From contig DAHWMK010000022.1 in assembly GCA_027343225.1 (NCBI GenBank), positions 136,266 through 200,265 of the forward strand: DNA of 64,000 nt. Reading direction: 5' to 3'. The translations under genes and the position numbers were made by a program. Shown piece after piece: positions 31,765 to 38,638 of this stretch. Numbering within the stretch: the stretch's first letter is position 1; each line of letters starts with the position of its first letter. This DNA comes from Thermoplasmatales archaeon (lineage in GTDB: Archaea > Thermoplasmatota > Thermoplasmata > Thermoplasmatales > GCA-001856825). The notes below the pieces were generated by a model. That model did not search any database and was not told where the DNA came from. It was given only the letters and a program-made list of their open reading frames with translations.

Positions 31765-32568
31765 TCAGGAAACACCAGAAACGGATTTTCTCTCTGGACC
31801 TTTTGTTGCTTCCTTTTGTTTGAACTTGACGAAAACGTTGGTTGTGAGAGTTTGACGGAGGAGCTGGATTGCGAGAGCAGGATCCACTCCCTTTGGACAC
31901 ACCTCCGAACATGCTCCGGAAAAGTGGCATCGCCAGACGCCGTGTTTGGAATCGAGTGCATTTAGTCTCTCGTTGAAACCTAGGTCCCTGTTATCAGCGA
32001 TATACCTGAATCCCTGGGCCAGTGCCTGTGGTCCAAGATAGAGTTCATCGGATGCACTTGTAGGACAGGCAGATAAGCACAAGCCACACAGGATGCAATC
32101 AGTAAACATTGCAAATTCTTCGCGTTGTTCAGGAGTCTGAAGGAACTCGCTCTTTGGTTCCTCCTCTTCCCTGATTATGAACGGCTTTACTGTCTCGTGG
32201 TTTCTGAACAACTTTGAGATGTCTGGAACAAGGTCCTTTGTTATCTCATAGTTGCCCATTGGGTCGACCTTTATAAGATCCTTTCCAAGTTCCAATACCT
32301 GGGTCTGGCAGGCAAGTCTCTCCTTTCCGTTTATGATCATTCCGCAGGATCCACATATTCCCATCCTGCAAGAGTACCTTGCAGCCAGAGAATGATCCAG
32401 ATGCTCCTTGATGTAGAGTATTGAATCTAGGACAGTCATCCCTTTCTGCACGGGGACTTTGTATTCCATATATTTAGGCAGTTCCTTGTTCTCAGGATCG
32501 TACCTTCTGACCCTGAACGTAACAGTCTTAACTACTTCTCCAAACCCCTTCAAAACAAGCTCTTGCAT
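31765..32568 (-). CDS. sdhB: Succinate dehydrogenase iron-sulfur subunit (operon 1)
   Basis: 267 aa with CRMGICGSCGMIINGKERLAC, CILCGLCLSACP and CHFSGACSEVCP cluster motifs. Confidence 0.92.
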   Translation of the reverse strand: MQELVLKGFGEVVKTVTFRVRRYDPENKELPKYMEYKVPVQKGMTVLDSILYIKEHLDHSLAARYSCRMGICGSCGMIINGKERLACQTQVLELGKDLIKVDPMGNYEITKDLVPDISKLFRNHETVKPFIIREEEEPKSEFLQTPEQREEFAMFTDCILCGLCLSACPTSASDELYLGPQALAQGFRYIADNRDLGFNERLNALDSKHGVWRCHFSGACSEVCPKGVDPALAIQLLRQTLTTNVFVKFKQKEATKGPERKSVSGVS

Positions 32569-32569
32569 A

Positions 32570-32953
32570 TCAGAACCCTCCGTTCAGTGCTACAATAACA
32601 GTTCTGGATCCCCAGATGAAGACTATAAGGGCTACTATTACGAGAGCATATGTTATGATCTTGTCTGCCCGTGCTCCCGGGAATATCTCCGAGAGTATGA
32701 CCCTGAAGCCATTAAAGACATGAAATACTAGGAACGTCAGCAGTAACTCCAGAACTGACCCCCATATTAAAGAGGAGTACACTGCCCGCACCCAGGAATA
32801 GTAAAGTGTTCCACCCACCAGAATGTGGGCACCGCTTGTGCCACCATAAGCATACAGTACCTTGTCTGGACTGGGTGACAGAACGCTTATCAACAGGAAG
32901 TGGAAAGACCCAAACACCACGACAAGCAGCCCGGTCAGGTATTGCAAAAACAT
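32570..32953 (-). CDS. sdhD: Succinate dehydrogenase membrane subunit D (operon 1)
   Basis: Three hydrophobic segments between sdhC and sdhB. ATG 32953 (MFLQYLTG...) avoids overlap with sdhC. The track start at 33013 and upstream GTG codons are alternatives. Confidence 0.7.
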   Translation of the reverse strand: MFLQYLTGLLVVVFGSFHFLLISVLSPSPDKVLYAYGGTSGAHILVGGTLYYSWVRAVYSSLIWGSVLELLLTFLVFHVFNGFRVILSEIFPGARADKIITYALVIVALIVFIWGSRTVIVALNGGF

Positions 32954-32967
32954 CACCTGCGACTCTC

Positions 32968-33417
32968 TCACACTATCGCCCCCGTGAAAATGAAAACTAT
33001 TCCAATAGCGCATATTACCAACATGAATATAGCAACGGCGACCTTGAGGGCGTTGTTCAATCCTCGAAGCGACTTAGGCTTGTAAGGATATTCAGGTCTG
33101 TAGGGCTTCGGAAGCAGCAAACCGTTCTCCACTACGGTAAGCCTGATGCCATTCAGAGCGTGGTACGTTGCGGCAATGAGAATCGCAGACAGTATGTAGG
33201 GGCCGTAGTGGACTCCAAAAGGGTAGTCAAGATCTACCATGATCTTGTTCCACGTGACCGGTCCATTCAGTATGTTTGATGTCTCCCAGACGTGAGCCAT
33301 CAGGTAAAGACCGAGTGCAATACCTGTGAGTCTGTGAAGTGCATACATCCATCTGTCCGTCCCGTACTTGAATGGGTTGAACCAGAAAATCCAGCCTTTC
33401 TTGTTTTCTATCGTCAT
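32968..33417 (-). CDS. sdhC: Succinate dehydrogenase cytochrome b subunit C (operon 1)
   Basis: 149 aa with 3 TM segments and HRLTGIALGLYLMAHVWE-type His-containing helices. Confidence 0.8.
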   Translation of the reverse strand: MTIENKKGWIFWFNPFKYGTDRWMYALHRLTGIALGLYLMAHVWETSNILNGPVTWNKIMVDLDYPFGVHYGPYILSAILIAATYHALNGIRLTVVENGLLLPKPYRPEYPYKPKSLRGLNNALKVAVAIFMLVICAIGIVFIFTGAIV

Positions 33418-33426
33418 TGAATCACC

Positions 33427-35154
33427 TCAGTACACCCTCGCTTCCGGCTTCCACTTTGTTAGCGTCACTGGACGATAACTGATGTTCAATGCACCATCGA
33501 TTCTCTGAGCAATCGTGTGTTTCAGATAGTTTTCATCGTCCCTCTTTGGATAATCGGTTCTGAAATGGGATCCTCTGCTCTCTCTTCTCTCGAGAGCGCT
33601 GTGCACGACAACTTCCGCCAGTTCGACGAGGTTCTTCATTTCCAGAGAAGCGATCAGGTTTTGATTGTACACATTTCCCTTCTCAGAAATCGAAATCTTT
33701 TGGCTCTTCTCAATGAGTCCTCTGATTATCTTTAAGCCCTCGGTGAGACCCTTCTCATTCCTGAAAACGTAGGCGTCCTTGTCCATAGTCTTCCAGAGTT
33801 CTCTCTTAATGTCGTAGGGATCATTGTCTCCCTTGTCCTTGTAGGCATCTGCCAAAAATTCCTCTGCTCGCTTTCCATCCCCATCGGTTAGACTTACGGA
33901 CCCGCTGTTAGATAGCAGCCATTTCGCCGAATCCTCTCCAGCAATCTTTCCGAAGACGACGCACTCGCTTGTAGAGTTGGCACCAAGCCTGTTCGAGCCA
34001 TGGACAGATAGACATGCAGTTTCTCCGGCAGCCCAGAGGCCTGTTACTCCGGTGAAGCCCGTGCGCGTGACATCTATCCCACCCATAGTGTAATGGGCAG
34101 AAGGTCTGACTGGCAGAGGGGAATCCACCGGATCGATGCCAACATAGTGGATGCCAATCTCCCTCACCTGGGACAATTTTTCCTTGATTTTCTCCGCACC
34201 GATAGGCGAAAAATCCAACAATAAGTAGTCCAATCCATCAGGTCCCTTGAATCCTTTTCCTTCCAGGATCTCTGTCATCATGCTTCTGGAAACTATGTCT
34301 CTTGGGGCCAAGTCCTTCTTAGTGGGGGCATATTTCTCCATGAATCTTTCCCCCTTCGCATTTCTGAGTATGCCTCCATCTCCTCTGACCCCCTCCGTTA
34401 TGAGAATTCCTGAAGGTACAAGACCCGTAGGATGGAACTGGACGAATTCTATGTCCTTTAGTTTCATACCCCGTCTGAGGGCAACAGCGAGACCATCTCC
34501 AGTGACTAGATGTGAATAGGTTGTATATCCATACAATCTTCCTAGTCCTCCGGTAGCAATTATTCCAGCTCTCGCCTTGAAAATTCTGGTCTGTCCTGTT
34601 GGAATGTCAAATGCCATCACTCCCTTGAACTTGTTGTTTTCAATTATGAAATCATAGACAAACTGCTCGTGAAACTTGTCTATGTTCTGATACTTGAGCA
34701 TTGTATCATAGAGTGTGTGAACCTCATAGAAGCCTGTTCTGTCAGAGGCAAATGTTGCTCTCGGATACGAATGTCCACCGAAAGGTCTCTGAGCAATCCT
34801 CCCATCATCCCTCCTTGCCCAAGGTATTCCCCAGTGTTCCAGCTCTAAGATATCCAGTGGTGCCTGCCTGACGAAGAATTCAATTATATCCTGATCTCCA
34901 AGATAGTCCGAGCCCTTTATGGTGTCGTAGGCGTGAAGGTCGAAGGAGTCTCCCTCATCCATGTAGAGTACTGCGGCGGATCCGCCTTCTGCTGAGATCG
35001 AATGCGGTCTCATCAACTGATTCTTTGCTATTATCGCAATCCGCAATTTATCCTTCCCAACTCTGGCTGCTTCAATCGCAGCCCTAAGACCCGCCAGACC
35101 GGAACCAATTATGACTAAATCGTAATCAAAGATTTCGACCAAATAGATCTCCAA
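33427..35154 (-). CDS. sdhA: Succinate dehydrogenase flavoprotein subunit (operon 1)
   Basis: 575 aa with [15 protein letters not shown], the covalent-FAD His context [16 protein letters not shown] and RGSHFR. The track start is TTG 35154. A second TTG at 35142 is possible. Confidence 0.92.
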
Positions 35155-35170
35155 TAAGAAAGTGCCTGAC

Positions 35171-35180
35171 GATATAAAAA
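35171..35180 (-). promoter_or_regulatory. Candidate TATA box for sdhACDB
   Basis: Minus strand reads GAGAATTTTTATATCGTCAGGCACTTTCTTATTGGAG. The TATA element lies about 20-30 nt upstream of the two candidate TTG starts. Confidence 0.3.
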
Positions 35181-35195
35181 TTCTCAGTTTTAGCC

Positions 35196-35210
35196 ACTAA
35201 ATTAAATTTA
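35196..35210. promoter_or_regulatory. 15-nt palindrome CTAAATT-A-AATTTAG upstream of the sdhA TATA box
   Basis: Two perfect 7-bp arms around one central base, lying between the two complex II operons. Confidence 0.25.
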
Positions 35211-35271
35211 GTTTACCTAAATGGAAAATAAATGGATAAAACTCAAAACTCACTCACCTATTCCTCACAGA

Positions 35272-35442
35272 TCAGGTGATCAAAATTGAAGATGCAAAGA
35301 GTATGAAACCTACTATCACCATTCCGATCACAGGAGTCATTCCAAGGTCAATCACTTTGTACAGTACCCCCGCTATCTCAATCAGGAATATCCCGAGGAA
35401 GAACAATGGGTATCTGTACCTGCTAGGCAGAATTTTCAGCAT
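35272..35442 (-). CDS. Unannotated 56-aa small membrane protein (two predicted TM helices)
   Basis: Below the ORF-track length cut-off. Hand translation gives MLKILPSRYRYPLFFLGIFLIEIAGVLYKVIDLGMTPVIGMVIVGFILFASSILIT*. The ATG lies 3 nt after the stop of the anchor gene (TGAGGCATG) and is preceded by GGGAGG. Confidence 0.55.
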   Translation of the reverse strand: MLKILPSRYRYPLFFLGIFLIEIAGVLYKVIDLGMTPVIGMVIVGFILFASSILIT

Positions 35443-35445
35443 GCC

Positions 35446-36165
35446 TCAAAGCCTCCCGTGTACTAGGAGGATGTTAGGAATAATTCCAGAGACCATTCCC
35501 CTTATGAACAGGTCAACGAAAACAAACATTATCAGACTCGTCCAAGCTATCGCCTCGTGATGCCCGTTCAACCTAGACTGGAACCTGTAGAGAGAATTTC
35601 TCTTGTTCTTGCTCACGGGGCAGTTGACACAATCGTTGTGTCCCCCGATCAAGTGCCTCACCGAGTGGCAGGAGAAGGTATAGAAGGTCACAGCAAGGGC
35701 GTTTACGGTGAGGATTATCGTTCCCAGACTCACGGTTAGCAGGCCAGAATATGTTATCGAATGATAAATGTCGTAATAGAAGAAAGGAAGAACTCCCCAA
35801 GCGGTGTACATGAAATATCTGTGAACATTCTCCACCCTGAAAAATCCAGTCTCGCCGCTGTACCCCCTTGTTTTCGAATCTTTCCTGGCATCCGTGGCGC
35901 AATTATTCGGGTGATTGAAGAGGTGTCTATGGTAATCCTTTCTGTATGCATAGCAGGTGACCCTGAATAGGGCGACCAGAGGCAGGATGAGGATAGTTGG
36001 AGTGTAGAATGGATCAGTCAGACCGTCGTAAACTGGAACTCTGTAGATGAAGAGGAGAACCGTGCCCAGAAGCGTTATCAGTACAAATGACCAGAATCTC
36101 CAGTTCGGTTCAAGGAATTCCGGGGGGATAAGATGCCTGATGGGAGATTCGCTCGCAGATCTCAT
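35446..36165 (-). CDS. Atypical single membrane anchor of the second complex II (5 TM, Cys/His-rich loop)
   Basis: 239 aa with about 5 hydrophobic segments. The loop motif SCHSVRHLIGGHNDCVNCP lies at 35620-35670. The gene overlaps the Fe-S subunit gene by 4 nt. It shows no resemblance to the sdhC/sdhD pair of operon 1. Confidence 0.65.
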   Translation of the reverse strand: MRSASESPIRHLIPPEFLEPNWRFWSFVLITLLGTVLLFIYRVPVYDGLTDPFYTPTILILPLVALFRVTCYAYRKDYHRHLFNHPNNCATDARKDSKTRGYSGETGFFRVENVHRYFMYTAWGVLPFFYYDIYHSITYSGLLTVSLGTIILTVNALAVTFYTFSCHSVRHLIGGHNDCVNCPVSKNKRNSLYRFQSRLNGHHEAIAWTSLIMFVFVDLFIRGMVSGIIPNILLVHGRL

Positions 36166-36911
36166 TTGCTGCCACTCCTTCTTCTCCTGGATCTTATAAA
36201 CATCGCAAGCGGATCGTACTGATTGTTAACAGCCCTTTCCTTCTCTGGGATTATTGCATTGTCTGTGATGTGTATCTCTTCGGGGCAGACTTCAGTACAG
36301 CACTTGGTTATGTTGCAATACCCCAGTCCGGCGTCCTTGTTCATGAATTCTGACCTGTCAAGCGCATCCAGAGGATGCATGTCGAGTGAAGCAGCCTTGA
36401 CGACATGCCTAGGCCCGAAATAGTTAGTGCTGTGCTCCCTTATCACGTGGCAGACATTCTGGCAAAGAAAACACTCGATGCACTTCTTGAATTCCTTTGA
36501 TCTCTCTATGTCAACCTGGGACATCTTCCACGGTTTTTCCAGACCTTCCTTTGGAGTGAATTTAGGAATCCGCTTCAGTAGTTCCCAGTTTTCTGACACG
36601 TCAGTAACCATGTCCTTTATGAGAGGGTATGCCGCTATAGGCGATACGGTAATCTTCCCCTCCTTTAGCGAATCAACCCGCGTCTTGCACATGAGGGCTG
36701 GCATGTGGTTAATCTCAGCGGAACAAGACCCACACTTACCTGCAGAACAGTTCCATCTCAAGGAGAGATTAGGGTCAATGTGCCTTTCTATGTATTTCAT
36801 AGCATCCAGAACAACCATTCCTTCTTCTCTCGGTACGTCGTAATCGACATACTTCCCCTCACGTTCCACAGAAGGGTCGTGCCTGTACACACTAACTCTT
36901 ACGGTATCCAT
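36162..36911 (-). CDS. sdhB: Succinate dehydrogenase/fumarate reductase iron-sulfur subunit (operon 2)
   Basis: 249 aa with CSAGKCGSCSAEINHMPALMC, CIECFLCQNVC and CNITKCCTEVCP. Confidence 0.88.
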   Translation of the reverse strand: MDTVRVSVYRHDPSVEREGKYVDYDVPREEGMVVLDAMKYIERHIDPNLSLRWNCSAGKCGSCSAEINHMPALMCKTRVDSLKEGKITVSPIAAYPLIKDMVTDVSENWELLKRIPKFTPKEGLEKPWKMSQVDIERSKEFKKCIECFLCQNVCHVIREHSTNYFGPRHVVKAASLDMHPLDALDRSEFMNKDAGLGYCNITKCCTEVCPEEIHITDNAIIPEKERAVNNQYDPLAMFIRSRRRRSGSK

Positions 36912-38638
36912 CAGTATACCTCCTCAGGCACCAGTTTCTTAAGCTCGTCCGGTATCTTCGGAACCTCTCTCCACTCTAGTTTCATTCCATTATCCCCCTT
37001 GGTGTAAATTATGTTCTTTCTCAATTCTGGGTTCTTCTTCGGGAAATCGCTTCTGGCATGCGCACCCCTGCTCTCCTTTCTTTCAATTGCCCCTCTGACA
37101 ATGGCCTCGGCTGCAATTAGCATGAAAGGAAGTTCGAGCGCCTGCAGCAGTCCCTTGTTGTACTTTAGACCACCCCTAACGCCGGCCATTGTCGAAGTCC
37201 CCTTCAGATCCATCACAGTTTTCAGAGCCTTTCTGAGATTCTCCTCATTTCTTATGATACCTACGTTTTCACTCATGTTTTCCGCAAGTCTCTCGGCAAT
37301 CTCGTGAGGATTCAATCCCTCCTTCCCAACGAATGACTCCACCCTCTCTATTTCAGCCGAAACTACGGATTCATCGATCTTCCCAATTGAAACTTTCTTT
37401 GCATAAGAGGAAGCCCCCTCTCCACTCCTCTTCCCGAAAACGAGTATATCTGCAAGGGAATTACCCCCGAGTCTGTTTGCACCGTGGAGTCCGCTTGCAA
37501 CCTCTCCCGATGCGAACAGTCCTGGAACGTTGGTTGCGGTCGTCTCTGGATCGACTCTTATCCCTCCCATCTGGTAGTGCACAGTTGGTGCGACTTCCAT
37601 CTTCTCCTTCGTTATATCCACTCCCGCGAAATCTAAGAACTGTTTGTACATGCTTGGCAGCTTCTTCTTGATGAAGTCAGGTCCCTTGTGGGTTATGTCC
37701 AGGTAGACCCCTCCATGCGCAGTACCTCTCCCGGCCATTATCTCTGCATAATTGGCCCTTGCAACAATGTCCCTAGCATCTAGTTCCATCTTCTTGGGTG
37801 AATAGCGCTGCATGAATCTTTCACCCTGGGAGTTCAGAAGTATCCCTCCCTCTCCCCTCACGCCTTCGGTGACAAGCAAGCCCTTAACCCCTGGAGGATA
37901 AACCATGCCCGTCGGATGAAACTGGATCATCTCCATGTCCATCAATTCCGCTCCGGCGTCGTAAGCAAGTCCAAGCCCATCTCCGGTTGACTCCCACGAA
38001 TTCGATGTAACCTTATAGATTCTACCGCAACCTCCCGTTGAAATGATCACGGCCCTAGAACTGAAAACGTAAAACTCGCCCGTGTTGAGCTTGAGTCCAA
38101 CAGCTCCAACGACCCTTTCCCCATCCTTCAGAAGCTTCGTAACGTAGAGCTCGTCGAAGAACTTTATGTCTCTGTGAAGAATCTGATCCTCAAGCGTCCT
38201 TATTATCTCAAGACCCGTTCTATCACCAACGTGACAGAGTCTCCTGTATGTGTGAGCCCCAAATGCCCTCTGCATTATGGTTCCCTCCGGCGTCCTGTCA
38301 AAGAGGGCACCATACTCTTCGAGCTCTCTTACCCTCTCAGGAGCCTCCTTTGCTAGGAGCTCAGCCATCCTGTAGTTTGAAATGTAAACTCCCTCTTCCA
38401 TGGTATCCGCGAAGTGGACCTCCCAGCTGTCTTTTGAATCCACGTTTGCAAGGGCTGCGGCAATACCTCCTTCTGCCATGACCGTGTGCGCCTTTCCAAG
38501 GAGTGATTTGGAGAGTATGGTCACCCTCGCTCCCGAATCGAAAGCAGAAATCGCCGCTCTCATCCCTGCCCCTCCAGCCCCAATTATAAGAACATCCGTC
38601 TCGTGTTTAACATATTTCGAACTCATATAACTCATCAA
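36911..38638 (-). CDS. sdhA: Succinate dehydrogenase/fumarate reductase flavoprotein subunit (operon 2)
   Basis: 575 aa with DVLIIGAGGAGMRAA, GKAHTVMAEGG, IQFHPTG, RGAHARSD and GANRLGGNSL. Confidence 0.9.
   Translation of the reverse strand: MMSYMSSKYVKHETDVLIIGAGGAGMRAAISAFDSGARVTILSKSLLGKAHTVMAEGGIAAALANVDSKDSWEVHFADTMEEGVYISNYRMAELLAKEAPERVRELEEYGALFDRTPEGTIMQRAFGAHTYRRLCHVGDRTGLEIIRTLEDQILHRDIKFFDELYVTKLLKDGERVVGAVGLKLNTGEFYVFSSRAVIISTGGCGRIYKVTSNSWESTGDGLGLAYDAGAELMDMEMIQFHPTGMVYPPGVKGLLVTEGVRGEGGILLNSQGERFMQRYSPKKMELDARDIVARANYAEIMAGRGTAHGGVYLDITHKGPDFIKKKLPSMYKQFLDFAGVDITKEKMEVAPTVHYQMGGIRVDPETTATNVPGLFASGEVASGLHGANRLGGNSLADILVFGKRSGEGASSYAKKVSIGKIDESVVSAEIERVESFVGKEGLNPHEIAERLAENMSENVGIIRNEENLRKALKTVMDLKGTSTMAGVRGGLKYNKGLLQALELPFMLIAAEAIVRGAIERKESRGAHARSDFPKKNPELRKNIIYTKGDNGMKLEWREVPKIPDELKKLVPEEVY

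Follow-up and report, generated by a model that had tools for sequence, protein, structure and literature searches.

The question raised by this locus is whether a type of complex II whose solved representative has three subunits is accompanied, in some archaea, by a small fourth protein. The minus strand of the window (the whole stretch of 64,000 nucleotides analyzed here) carries a head-to-tail pair of complete complex II operons between positions 31765 and 38638. A preliminary description, which called the membrane anchor of the upstream operon atypical, reported a hidden open reading frame (ORF) of 56 codons directly behind the anchor gene and suggested that it might encode a small subunit or an assembly factor. 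Is this frame a gene, does it belong with the anchor, and what could its product do?

The operon in which the frame lies (35272-38638, minus strand) reads sdhA-sdhB-sdhC-small. The flavoprotein gene sdhA (36911-38638, exact start not fixed) has NF005866 (PRK07803) as its best NCBIfam model, with 759 bits, under the cut-off of 819 for this model, and 7D6V_A as its closest PDB relative (E 3e-172). The iron-sulfur subunit gene sdhB (36162-36911) clears NF009052 (PRK12386) with 327 bits against a cut-off of 256 and carries the Pfam domains Fer2_3 and Fer4_8. The anchor gene sdhC (35446-36165) encodes 239 amino acids with five predicted transmembrane (TM) helices and belongs to no Pfam or NCBIfam family; its sole match in a phmmer search of the PDB was 7D6V_C (E 3.3e-23). 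In an AlphaFold2 model comprising five long helices and the hairpin of the small protein, 7D6V_C was again the only significant Foldseek match (E 2.2e-7, probability 1.00). These chains belong to Sdh1 of Mycobacterium smegmatis, the founding type-F complex II, which has three subunits (PDB 7D6V and 7D6X; PMC8054011). The five-helix anchor of Sdh1 contains a membrane-embedded Rieske-type 2Fe-2S cluster, whose ligands are His155, His240, and two cysteines (PMC8054011). As counted on the phmmer alignment, H115 and H203 of the archaeal anchor align with these two histidines, and C71 and C166 align with the mycobacterial cysteines of TCYYY and SCHS. All four residues are invariant in the archaeal anchors (sets of 23 and 81), and C71 and C166 are thus presumably the Cys ligands of the cluster. 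Because of the matches to 7D6V_C and the conserved Rieske His ligands, the atypical anchor is recognized as a type-F SdhC and, as far as sequence can tell, the operon is that of a type-F, M. smegmatis Sdh1-like complex II.

Compared with Sdh1 of M. smegmatis, SdhA, SdhB, and the five-TM anchor are homologous, and both tested His ligands as well as the candidate cysteines are shared. However, Sdh1 has no hairpin protein and its genes are arranged C-A-B with small soluble ORFs on either side, instead of A-B-C-small, while the archaeal anchor is about 40 amino acids shorter and lacks the long outer loop between TM1 and TM2. Archaeal short-type anchors also share an invariant D-C-x-x-C (C179 and C182 here) and an invariant C89. 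The D-C-x-x-C sits in the predicted cytoplasmic TM4-TM5 loop and could form an extra, clade-specific metal site; the M. smegmatis SdhC shows a gap at this position and has instead a second Cys in C-H-S-C-R-H.

Directly downstream of the type-F operon begins a classical one, with sdhA (33427-35154), sdhC (32968-33417), sdhD (32570-33013, overlapping sdhC by 46 nt in a different frame), and sdhB (31765-32568), all on the minus strand and including two PF01127 anchors. The tandem of type-F and classical operons is also kept in the I-plasma genus and in one further locus (L049). The anchor shares 84% identity with its I-plasma counterpart and 91% with the one encoded in a Thermoplasmata metagenome-assembled genome (MAG), and the source organism falls in the I-plasma group of uncultured Thermoplasmata. 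In several "plasmas" from acid mine drainage (AMD), Yelton et al. (2013) noted a "missing" SdhD and a poorly annotated SdhC (PMC3750248), which would fit a misreading of type-F operons. An AT-rich, T-rich spacer (35155-35271, minus strand; gttttgagttttatccatttattttcc ... aatttttatat) lies 3' of the small ORF and parts the two operons, so that the small ORF closes its own. The spacer contains several T-runs followed by a TTTTTATAT element about 20-30 nt ahead of the TTG start of the classical sdhA, and it may thus hold a terminator and, behind it, a promoter.

The small ORF itself (35272-35442, minus strand) runs from an ATG at 35440-35442 to a TGA at 35272-35274. Translation of the minus strand gives MLKILPSRYRYPLFFLGIFLIEIAGVLYKVIDLGMTPVIGMVIVGFILFASSILIT, a product of 56 amino acids and 6.3 kDa that is identical to the peptide quoted earlier. 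The anchor stop TGA (35446-35448) is followed by GGC and then by the ATG, so that the reported spacing of 3 nt is exact, and the GGGAGG said to precede the start was found at 35452-35457 (minus strand), a Shine-Dalgarno-like hexamer inside the final anchor codons, 9 nt before the ATG. Since only one in-frame sense codon separates this ATG from the upstream stop, no other start is possible. The description of the ORF as hidden is right in that a 60-amino-acid cut-off misses it, but NCBI and JGI do annotate it in related MAGs, where the few named family members are publicly labeled "hypothetical protein." The 94-amino-acid antisense ORF listed in its place is indeed present (35276-35560, plus strand); it has no Pfam match, and we judge it spurious because most of the 16 related loci described below have their antisense frames interrupted by stops.

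A frame of this size behind the anchor gene could be a chance opening within the 3' untranslated region, and its shortness, its hydrophobic product, the AT-rich surroundings, and the lack of a family model would all suit such a reading. We therefore turn to comparative data, which already contradict it. Two separate searches of 41 related genomes, one using the small protein as query and one using the anchor, returned the same 16 loci, from 15 genomes and the window itself, which take in another genus of the family and one genus of another family. In all 16, the small ORF has 56 codons and directly follows the anchor, with its ATG 2-5 nt past the anchor stop or, in one locus (L034), with a 1-nt TAAATG overlap; in the anchor-less genomes among the 41, no match to the small protein was better than E 0.01. 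The preliminary description had named a syntenic ORF in relatives as the check to be run, and the ORF proved conserved in every relative that has the anchor, with clear purifying selection. Pairwise differences among the 16 loci amount to 1770, 1166, and 3922 at codon positions 1, 2, and 3, respectively. The dN/dS ratio of the small ORF is approximately 0.11-0.18, compared to 0.04 when the same pairs are evaluated for the anchor; these values are rough because dS is close to saturation.

A wider sample, in which one genome per species was scanned with an anchor alignment, gave 80 loci labeled Thermoplasmata (including E-plasma and Oxyplasma meridianum), Micrarchaeota, Marsarchaeota, Nitrososphaerales, and others. 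The small ORF stands right after the anchor in all 80. Carriers that are in culture include O. meridianum M1, Thermogymnomonas acidicola, and Micrarchaeum A_DKE, the last in co-culture. An HMM built from the 16 proteins matched 77 of them at E<1e-3; L116 has a divergent but recognizable copy that retains the RYPFF and VGF motifs, and in two loci the contig ends a few codons into the gene, with the N-terminus MKRI(L/I)P.RFRYP... still in place. Lengths range from 50 to 67 amino acids, and the start codon is ATG in 67 loci, GTG in five, and TTG in five. That the frame is open in 80/80 loci, down to about 25-30% identity, with conserved motifs, a dN/dS of about 0.11, and a strong third-position bias, leaves a chance origin with hardly any probability. 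On this comparative evidence, the small ORF is a genuine protein-coding gene under purifying selection. It also founds a new protein family: the small protein has no Pfam match at E<=1 and no NCBIfam model, a profile search against 1.84 billion representative proteins recovered 65 family clusters only, all of 36-70 amino acids and all free-standing, and literature searches turned up no account of archaeal type-F enzymes or of the small hairpin protein. Three of the contigs with the archaeal operon are labeled "bacterium," "Methanothrix sp.," and "Gammaproteobacteria bacterium" (L052, L060, and L103, respectively) and are probably mis-binned MAG contigs.

The gene is tied to the anchor more closely than to the rest of the operon. 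The order sdhA-sdhB-anchor-small prevails among the loci. Three of them, of Nitrososphaerales type (L102, L104, and L113), have sdhB-sdhA convergently on the opposite strand, which places the soluble part of the enzyme and its membrane part in separate transcription units, and there the anchor and the small ORF stay adjacent; in three others (L091, L111, and L116), the pair occurs without adjacent sdhAB. Because the pair persists where sdhAB has moved or is not adjacent, the conserved unit is the anchor plus the small ORF. The distance between the anchor stop and the small-ORF start has a median of about 4-5 nt within a range of -4 to +41 nt, and 16 loci have ATGA overlaps. Shine-Dalgarno-like 4-5-mers occur at -18 to -4 in 46 of 77 loci (60%), compared to 17% at random positions of the same loci. 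The translational coupling to the anchor gene proposed in the preliminary description fits this tight junction, and we infer that the small ORF is translated in this way. Read-through or frameshifting, which would make the ORF an extension of the anchor, was rejected since the gap differs between loci (-4, -1, 1, 2, 3, 4, 5 nt, etc.); the frame relation varies accordingly, and the small ORF must thus give a separate polypeptide. AlphaFold2 run on an artificial TGA-read-through fusion of the anchor and the small ORF returned a pLDDT of 76 and a pTM of 0.68.

The two hydrophobic helices first noticed in the translation are also predicted by AlphaFold2, which, with 75 sequences, models a helical hairpin (H7-31 and H35-54) at a mean pLDDT of 90.3. 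The N-terminus is basic and aromatic (ILPSRYRYPLFF) and helix 2 carries a conserved GF...F..S motif. Conservation across the family is high at R10 (K/R, 99%), Y11 (Y/F, 96%), P12 (97%), F14 (100%), F15 (80%), G17 (G/A, 99%), G25 (88%), K29 (basic, 74%), G45 (100%), F46 (92%), and S52 (98%). Small residues spaced at i and i+7 or i+8 on both helices, as seen here, are typical of helix packing. The segment before helix 1 is basic, with about 3.2 Lys/Arg per sequence, and the loop has about one Lys/Arg, balanced by as many acidic residues; the positive-inside rule predicts a cytoplasmic location for the two termini. An acidic, membrane-embedded residue in helix 1, E22, is found in about half of the family. 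The small protein has no conserved Cys or His and hence would ligate no cofactor. Trypsin would release from it only very hydrophobic peptides, YPLFFLGIFLIEIAGVLYK and a C-terminal piece of 27 residues.

No relative of known structure was recovered: phmmer of the small protein against all PDB chains of at least 20 residues gave no match at E<=10, and Foldseek of the hairpin model retrieved helical hairpins only, none of them significant. An origin by internal duplication of the anchor was also considered and rejected, as the profiles of the small protein and of the anchor, when compared by hhalign, revealed no homology. A MAFFT alignment (A3) that placed the small proteins on the HRYF...LPFF stretch of the anchor was an artifact and was discarded. 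Subunits SdhC and SdhD of the PF01127 (Sdh_cyt) family are likewise encoded inside sdh operons and are complex II membrane subunits, but these canonical anchors have three helices and heme-ligand histidines, whereas the small protein has two helices, no conserved His, and no PF01127 match.

How far the gene extends was assessed in 201 genomes of the phylum, 63 of which have an anchor homologue. The short-type anchor (profile E<1e-90) occurs in three of them only (G000, G039, and G220), and exactly these three have an adjacent small ORF; the remaining 60 have more distant and longer anchors of 256-312 amino acids and make up a second, larger type-F clade. Away from the anchor, no copy of the small protein was detected at E<1e-4 in the 201 genomes, and the two marginal profile matches obtained (E 2e-4 and 6e-4) share no contig with the anchor. 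Inspection of 14 long-anchor Thermoplasmatota loci revealed no consistent small TM ORF, and all 14 have the mycobacterial order anchor-sdhA-sdhB (C-A-B). In two of these loci (L126 and L134, of L122-L135), a sixth, C-terminal TM helix is fused to TM5 of the long anchor. As an equivalent of the hairpin, this helix was dismissed for want of any sequence similarity. The small hairpin gene was not found either in the actinobacterial Sdh1 operons inspected (L119-L121; Mycolicibacterium and Amycolatopsis). These are arranged as a soluble ORF of 95-98 amino acids, then SdhC-SdhA-SdhB, then a soluble ORF of 53-100 amino acids. The first ORF is conserved, with an ATGA overlap in Amycolatopsis, and the second is non-conserved; being soluble and unrelated, neither qualifies as an equivalent of the hairpin. 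Among the genomes sampled, the small gene is thus confined to one type-F clade, that with a short anchor and the A-B-C order, and is not Thermoplasmata-wide. Because the actinobacterial and long-anchor operons do without the gene, the hairpin is dispensable for the type-F mechanism as such.

What, then, does the product do? Being strongly conserved and always placed after a type-F anchor, it is probably an unrecognized fourth subunit, and the reading that we favor, as the best supported, is that succinate:quinone oxidoreductases of one archaeal type-F subclass contain the hairpin as a small membrane subunit in stoichiometric amount. The conserved fourth gene at all 80 short-anchor loci contrasts with the three-subunit composition of the solved enzyme. 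In the mechanism that we propose, SdhC and the hairpin would be made one-to-one and would remain together, the hairpin serving as a second membrane subunit. Its helices may pack on SdhC through the conserved small residues, G17 and G25 of helix 1 and G45 and S52 of helix 2, placing the near-invariant (K/R)-Y-P-L-F-F at the cytoplasmic membrane surface. It is at this surface that SdhB docks and the quinone site is formed in the mycobacterial structure. The hairpin could there stabilize the anchor or its cluster, or shape the access of quinone, as does the unrelated one-helix SdhF. Four findings count against a subunit: three subunits suffice for the solved type-F enzyme (PMC8054011), the gene is missing from the actinobacterial and long-anchor Thermoplasmatota operons inspected, the nonsynonymous rate of the small ORF is about twice that of the anchor, and natural fusions to the anchor are seen neither in the 65 family clusters nor among the anchors listed (229-266 amino acids).

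The closest functional parallel is SdhF, which the preliminary description had correctly cited as a small subunit of mycobacterial Sdh2 (PMC7447783). This type-A, diheme enzyme of M. smegmatis (PDB 6LUM) contains SdhF as a single helix of 3 kDa, which contacts helices I and V of SdhC as well as SdhB and covers the proximal quinone site (PMC7447783). SdhF was overlooked by annotation and by SDS-PAGE and was detected only by cryo-EM and mass spectrometry of Sdh2, and homologues are reported mainly in mycobacteria (PMC7447783). Both are very small membrane proteins, and the parallel that we propose is one of function, but the present one has 6.3 kDa and two helices against the 3 kDa and one helix of SdhF. 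Given this other topology and the lack of a PDB match at E<=10, a search in which a 3-kDa chain may be hard to match, the small hairpin is analogous, not homologous, to SdhF. Accessory mini-proteins are also known outside complex II. CydX of cytochrome bd, for instance, is encoded at the end of its operon and is needed for the stability or activity of the complex. Proteins of this kind are unrelated to the hairpin in sequence and most of them have a single helix, so the comparison can be one of analogy only.

The same linkage and the same selection would be expected of an assembly or insertion factor that helps the short-type anchor to fold in the membrane or to acquire its 2Fe-2S cluster and that the mature enzyme lacks or contains in less than stoichiometric amount. 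This is the main rival, and a credible one because type-F chemistry works without such a protein, as the three subunits of 7D6V illustrate. Moreover, both soluble ORFs that flank the actinobacterial genes are absent from the 7D6V structure, so type-F operons can hold non-structural helpers. Against this role, the small protein has no conserved Cys or His with which to handle a cluster, and coupling through ATGA overlaps suggests one-to-one production. The complex II assembly factors of the SDHAF and SdhE families are soluble, and we know of no dedicated membrane-hairpin assembly factor for this enzyme. On balance, we regard a function restricted to assembly as rather unlikely.

A third reading would tie the function to complex II only loosely: the hairpin gene would travel with the anchor gene by co-regulation and its product serve, for example, as a link to a partner complex, in oligomerization, or in regulating quinone access under acid stress. 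Judging from record titles, most carriers indeed come from acidic habitats such as mine drainage, and the presence of E22 in only part of the family suggests lineage-specific roles. Yet the anchor and the small ORF stay together through operon rearrangements and no anchor-free copy was seen at E<1e-4 in the 201 phylum genomes, and we consider such a loose association improbable. If the product is a subunit, as we favor, a more specific version may be envisaged. The hairpin would be an obligatory part of the membrane domain and would define an archaeal type-F subclass with two membrane subunits (5 + 2 helices), the order A-B-C-small, a short anchor, and the extra D-C-x-x-C, with (K/R)-Y-P-L-F-F, on the cytoplasmic side, contributing to the quinone pocket or to the contact between SdhB and SdhC. 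We put this forward tentatively, as a possibility that is more doubtful than subunit status alone.

The small ORF is a clean case of a functional gene lying under the usual ORF cut-off of 60 amino acids. Of type-F complex II, a single enzyme has been solved, the mycobacterial Sdh1, which is being investigated as a drug target and is unusual in its Rieske-type cluster embedded in the membrane. A large archaeal branch of this type exists, and one of its clades, with Thermoplasmatales-like archaea, Micrarchaeota, Marsarchaeota, and some Nitrososphaerales, always has the gene of an extra mini-protein beside the anchor. Should the product be a subunit, class F would be uniform neither in its number of subunits nor in its membrane architecture, and models of quinone access derived from the mycobacterial structure would not be directly transferable to archaea.
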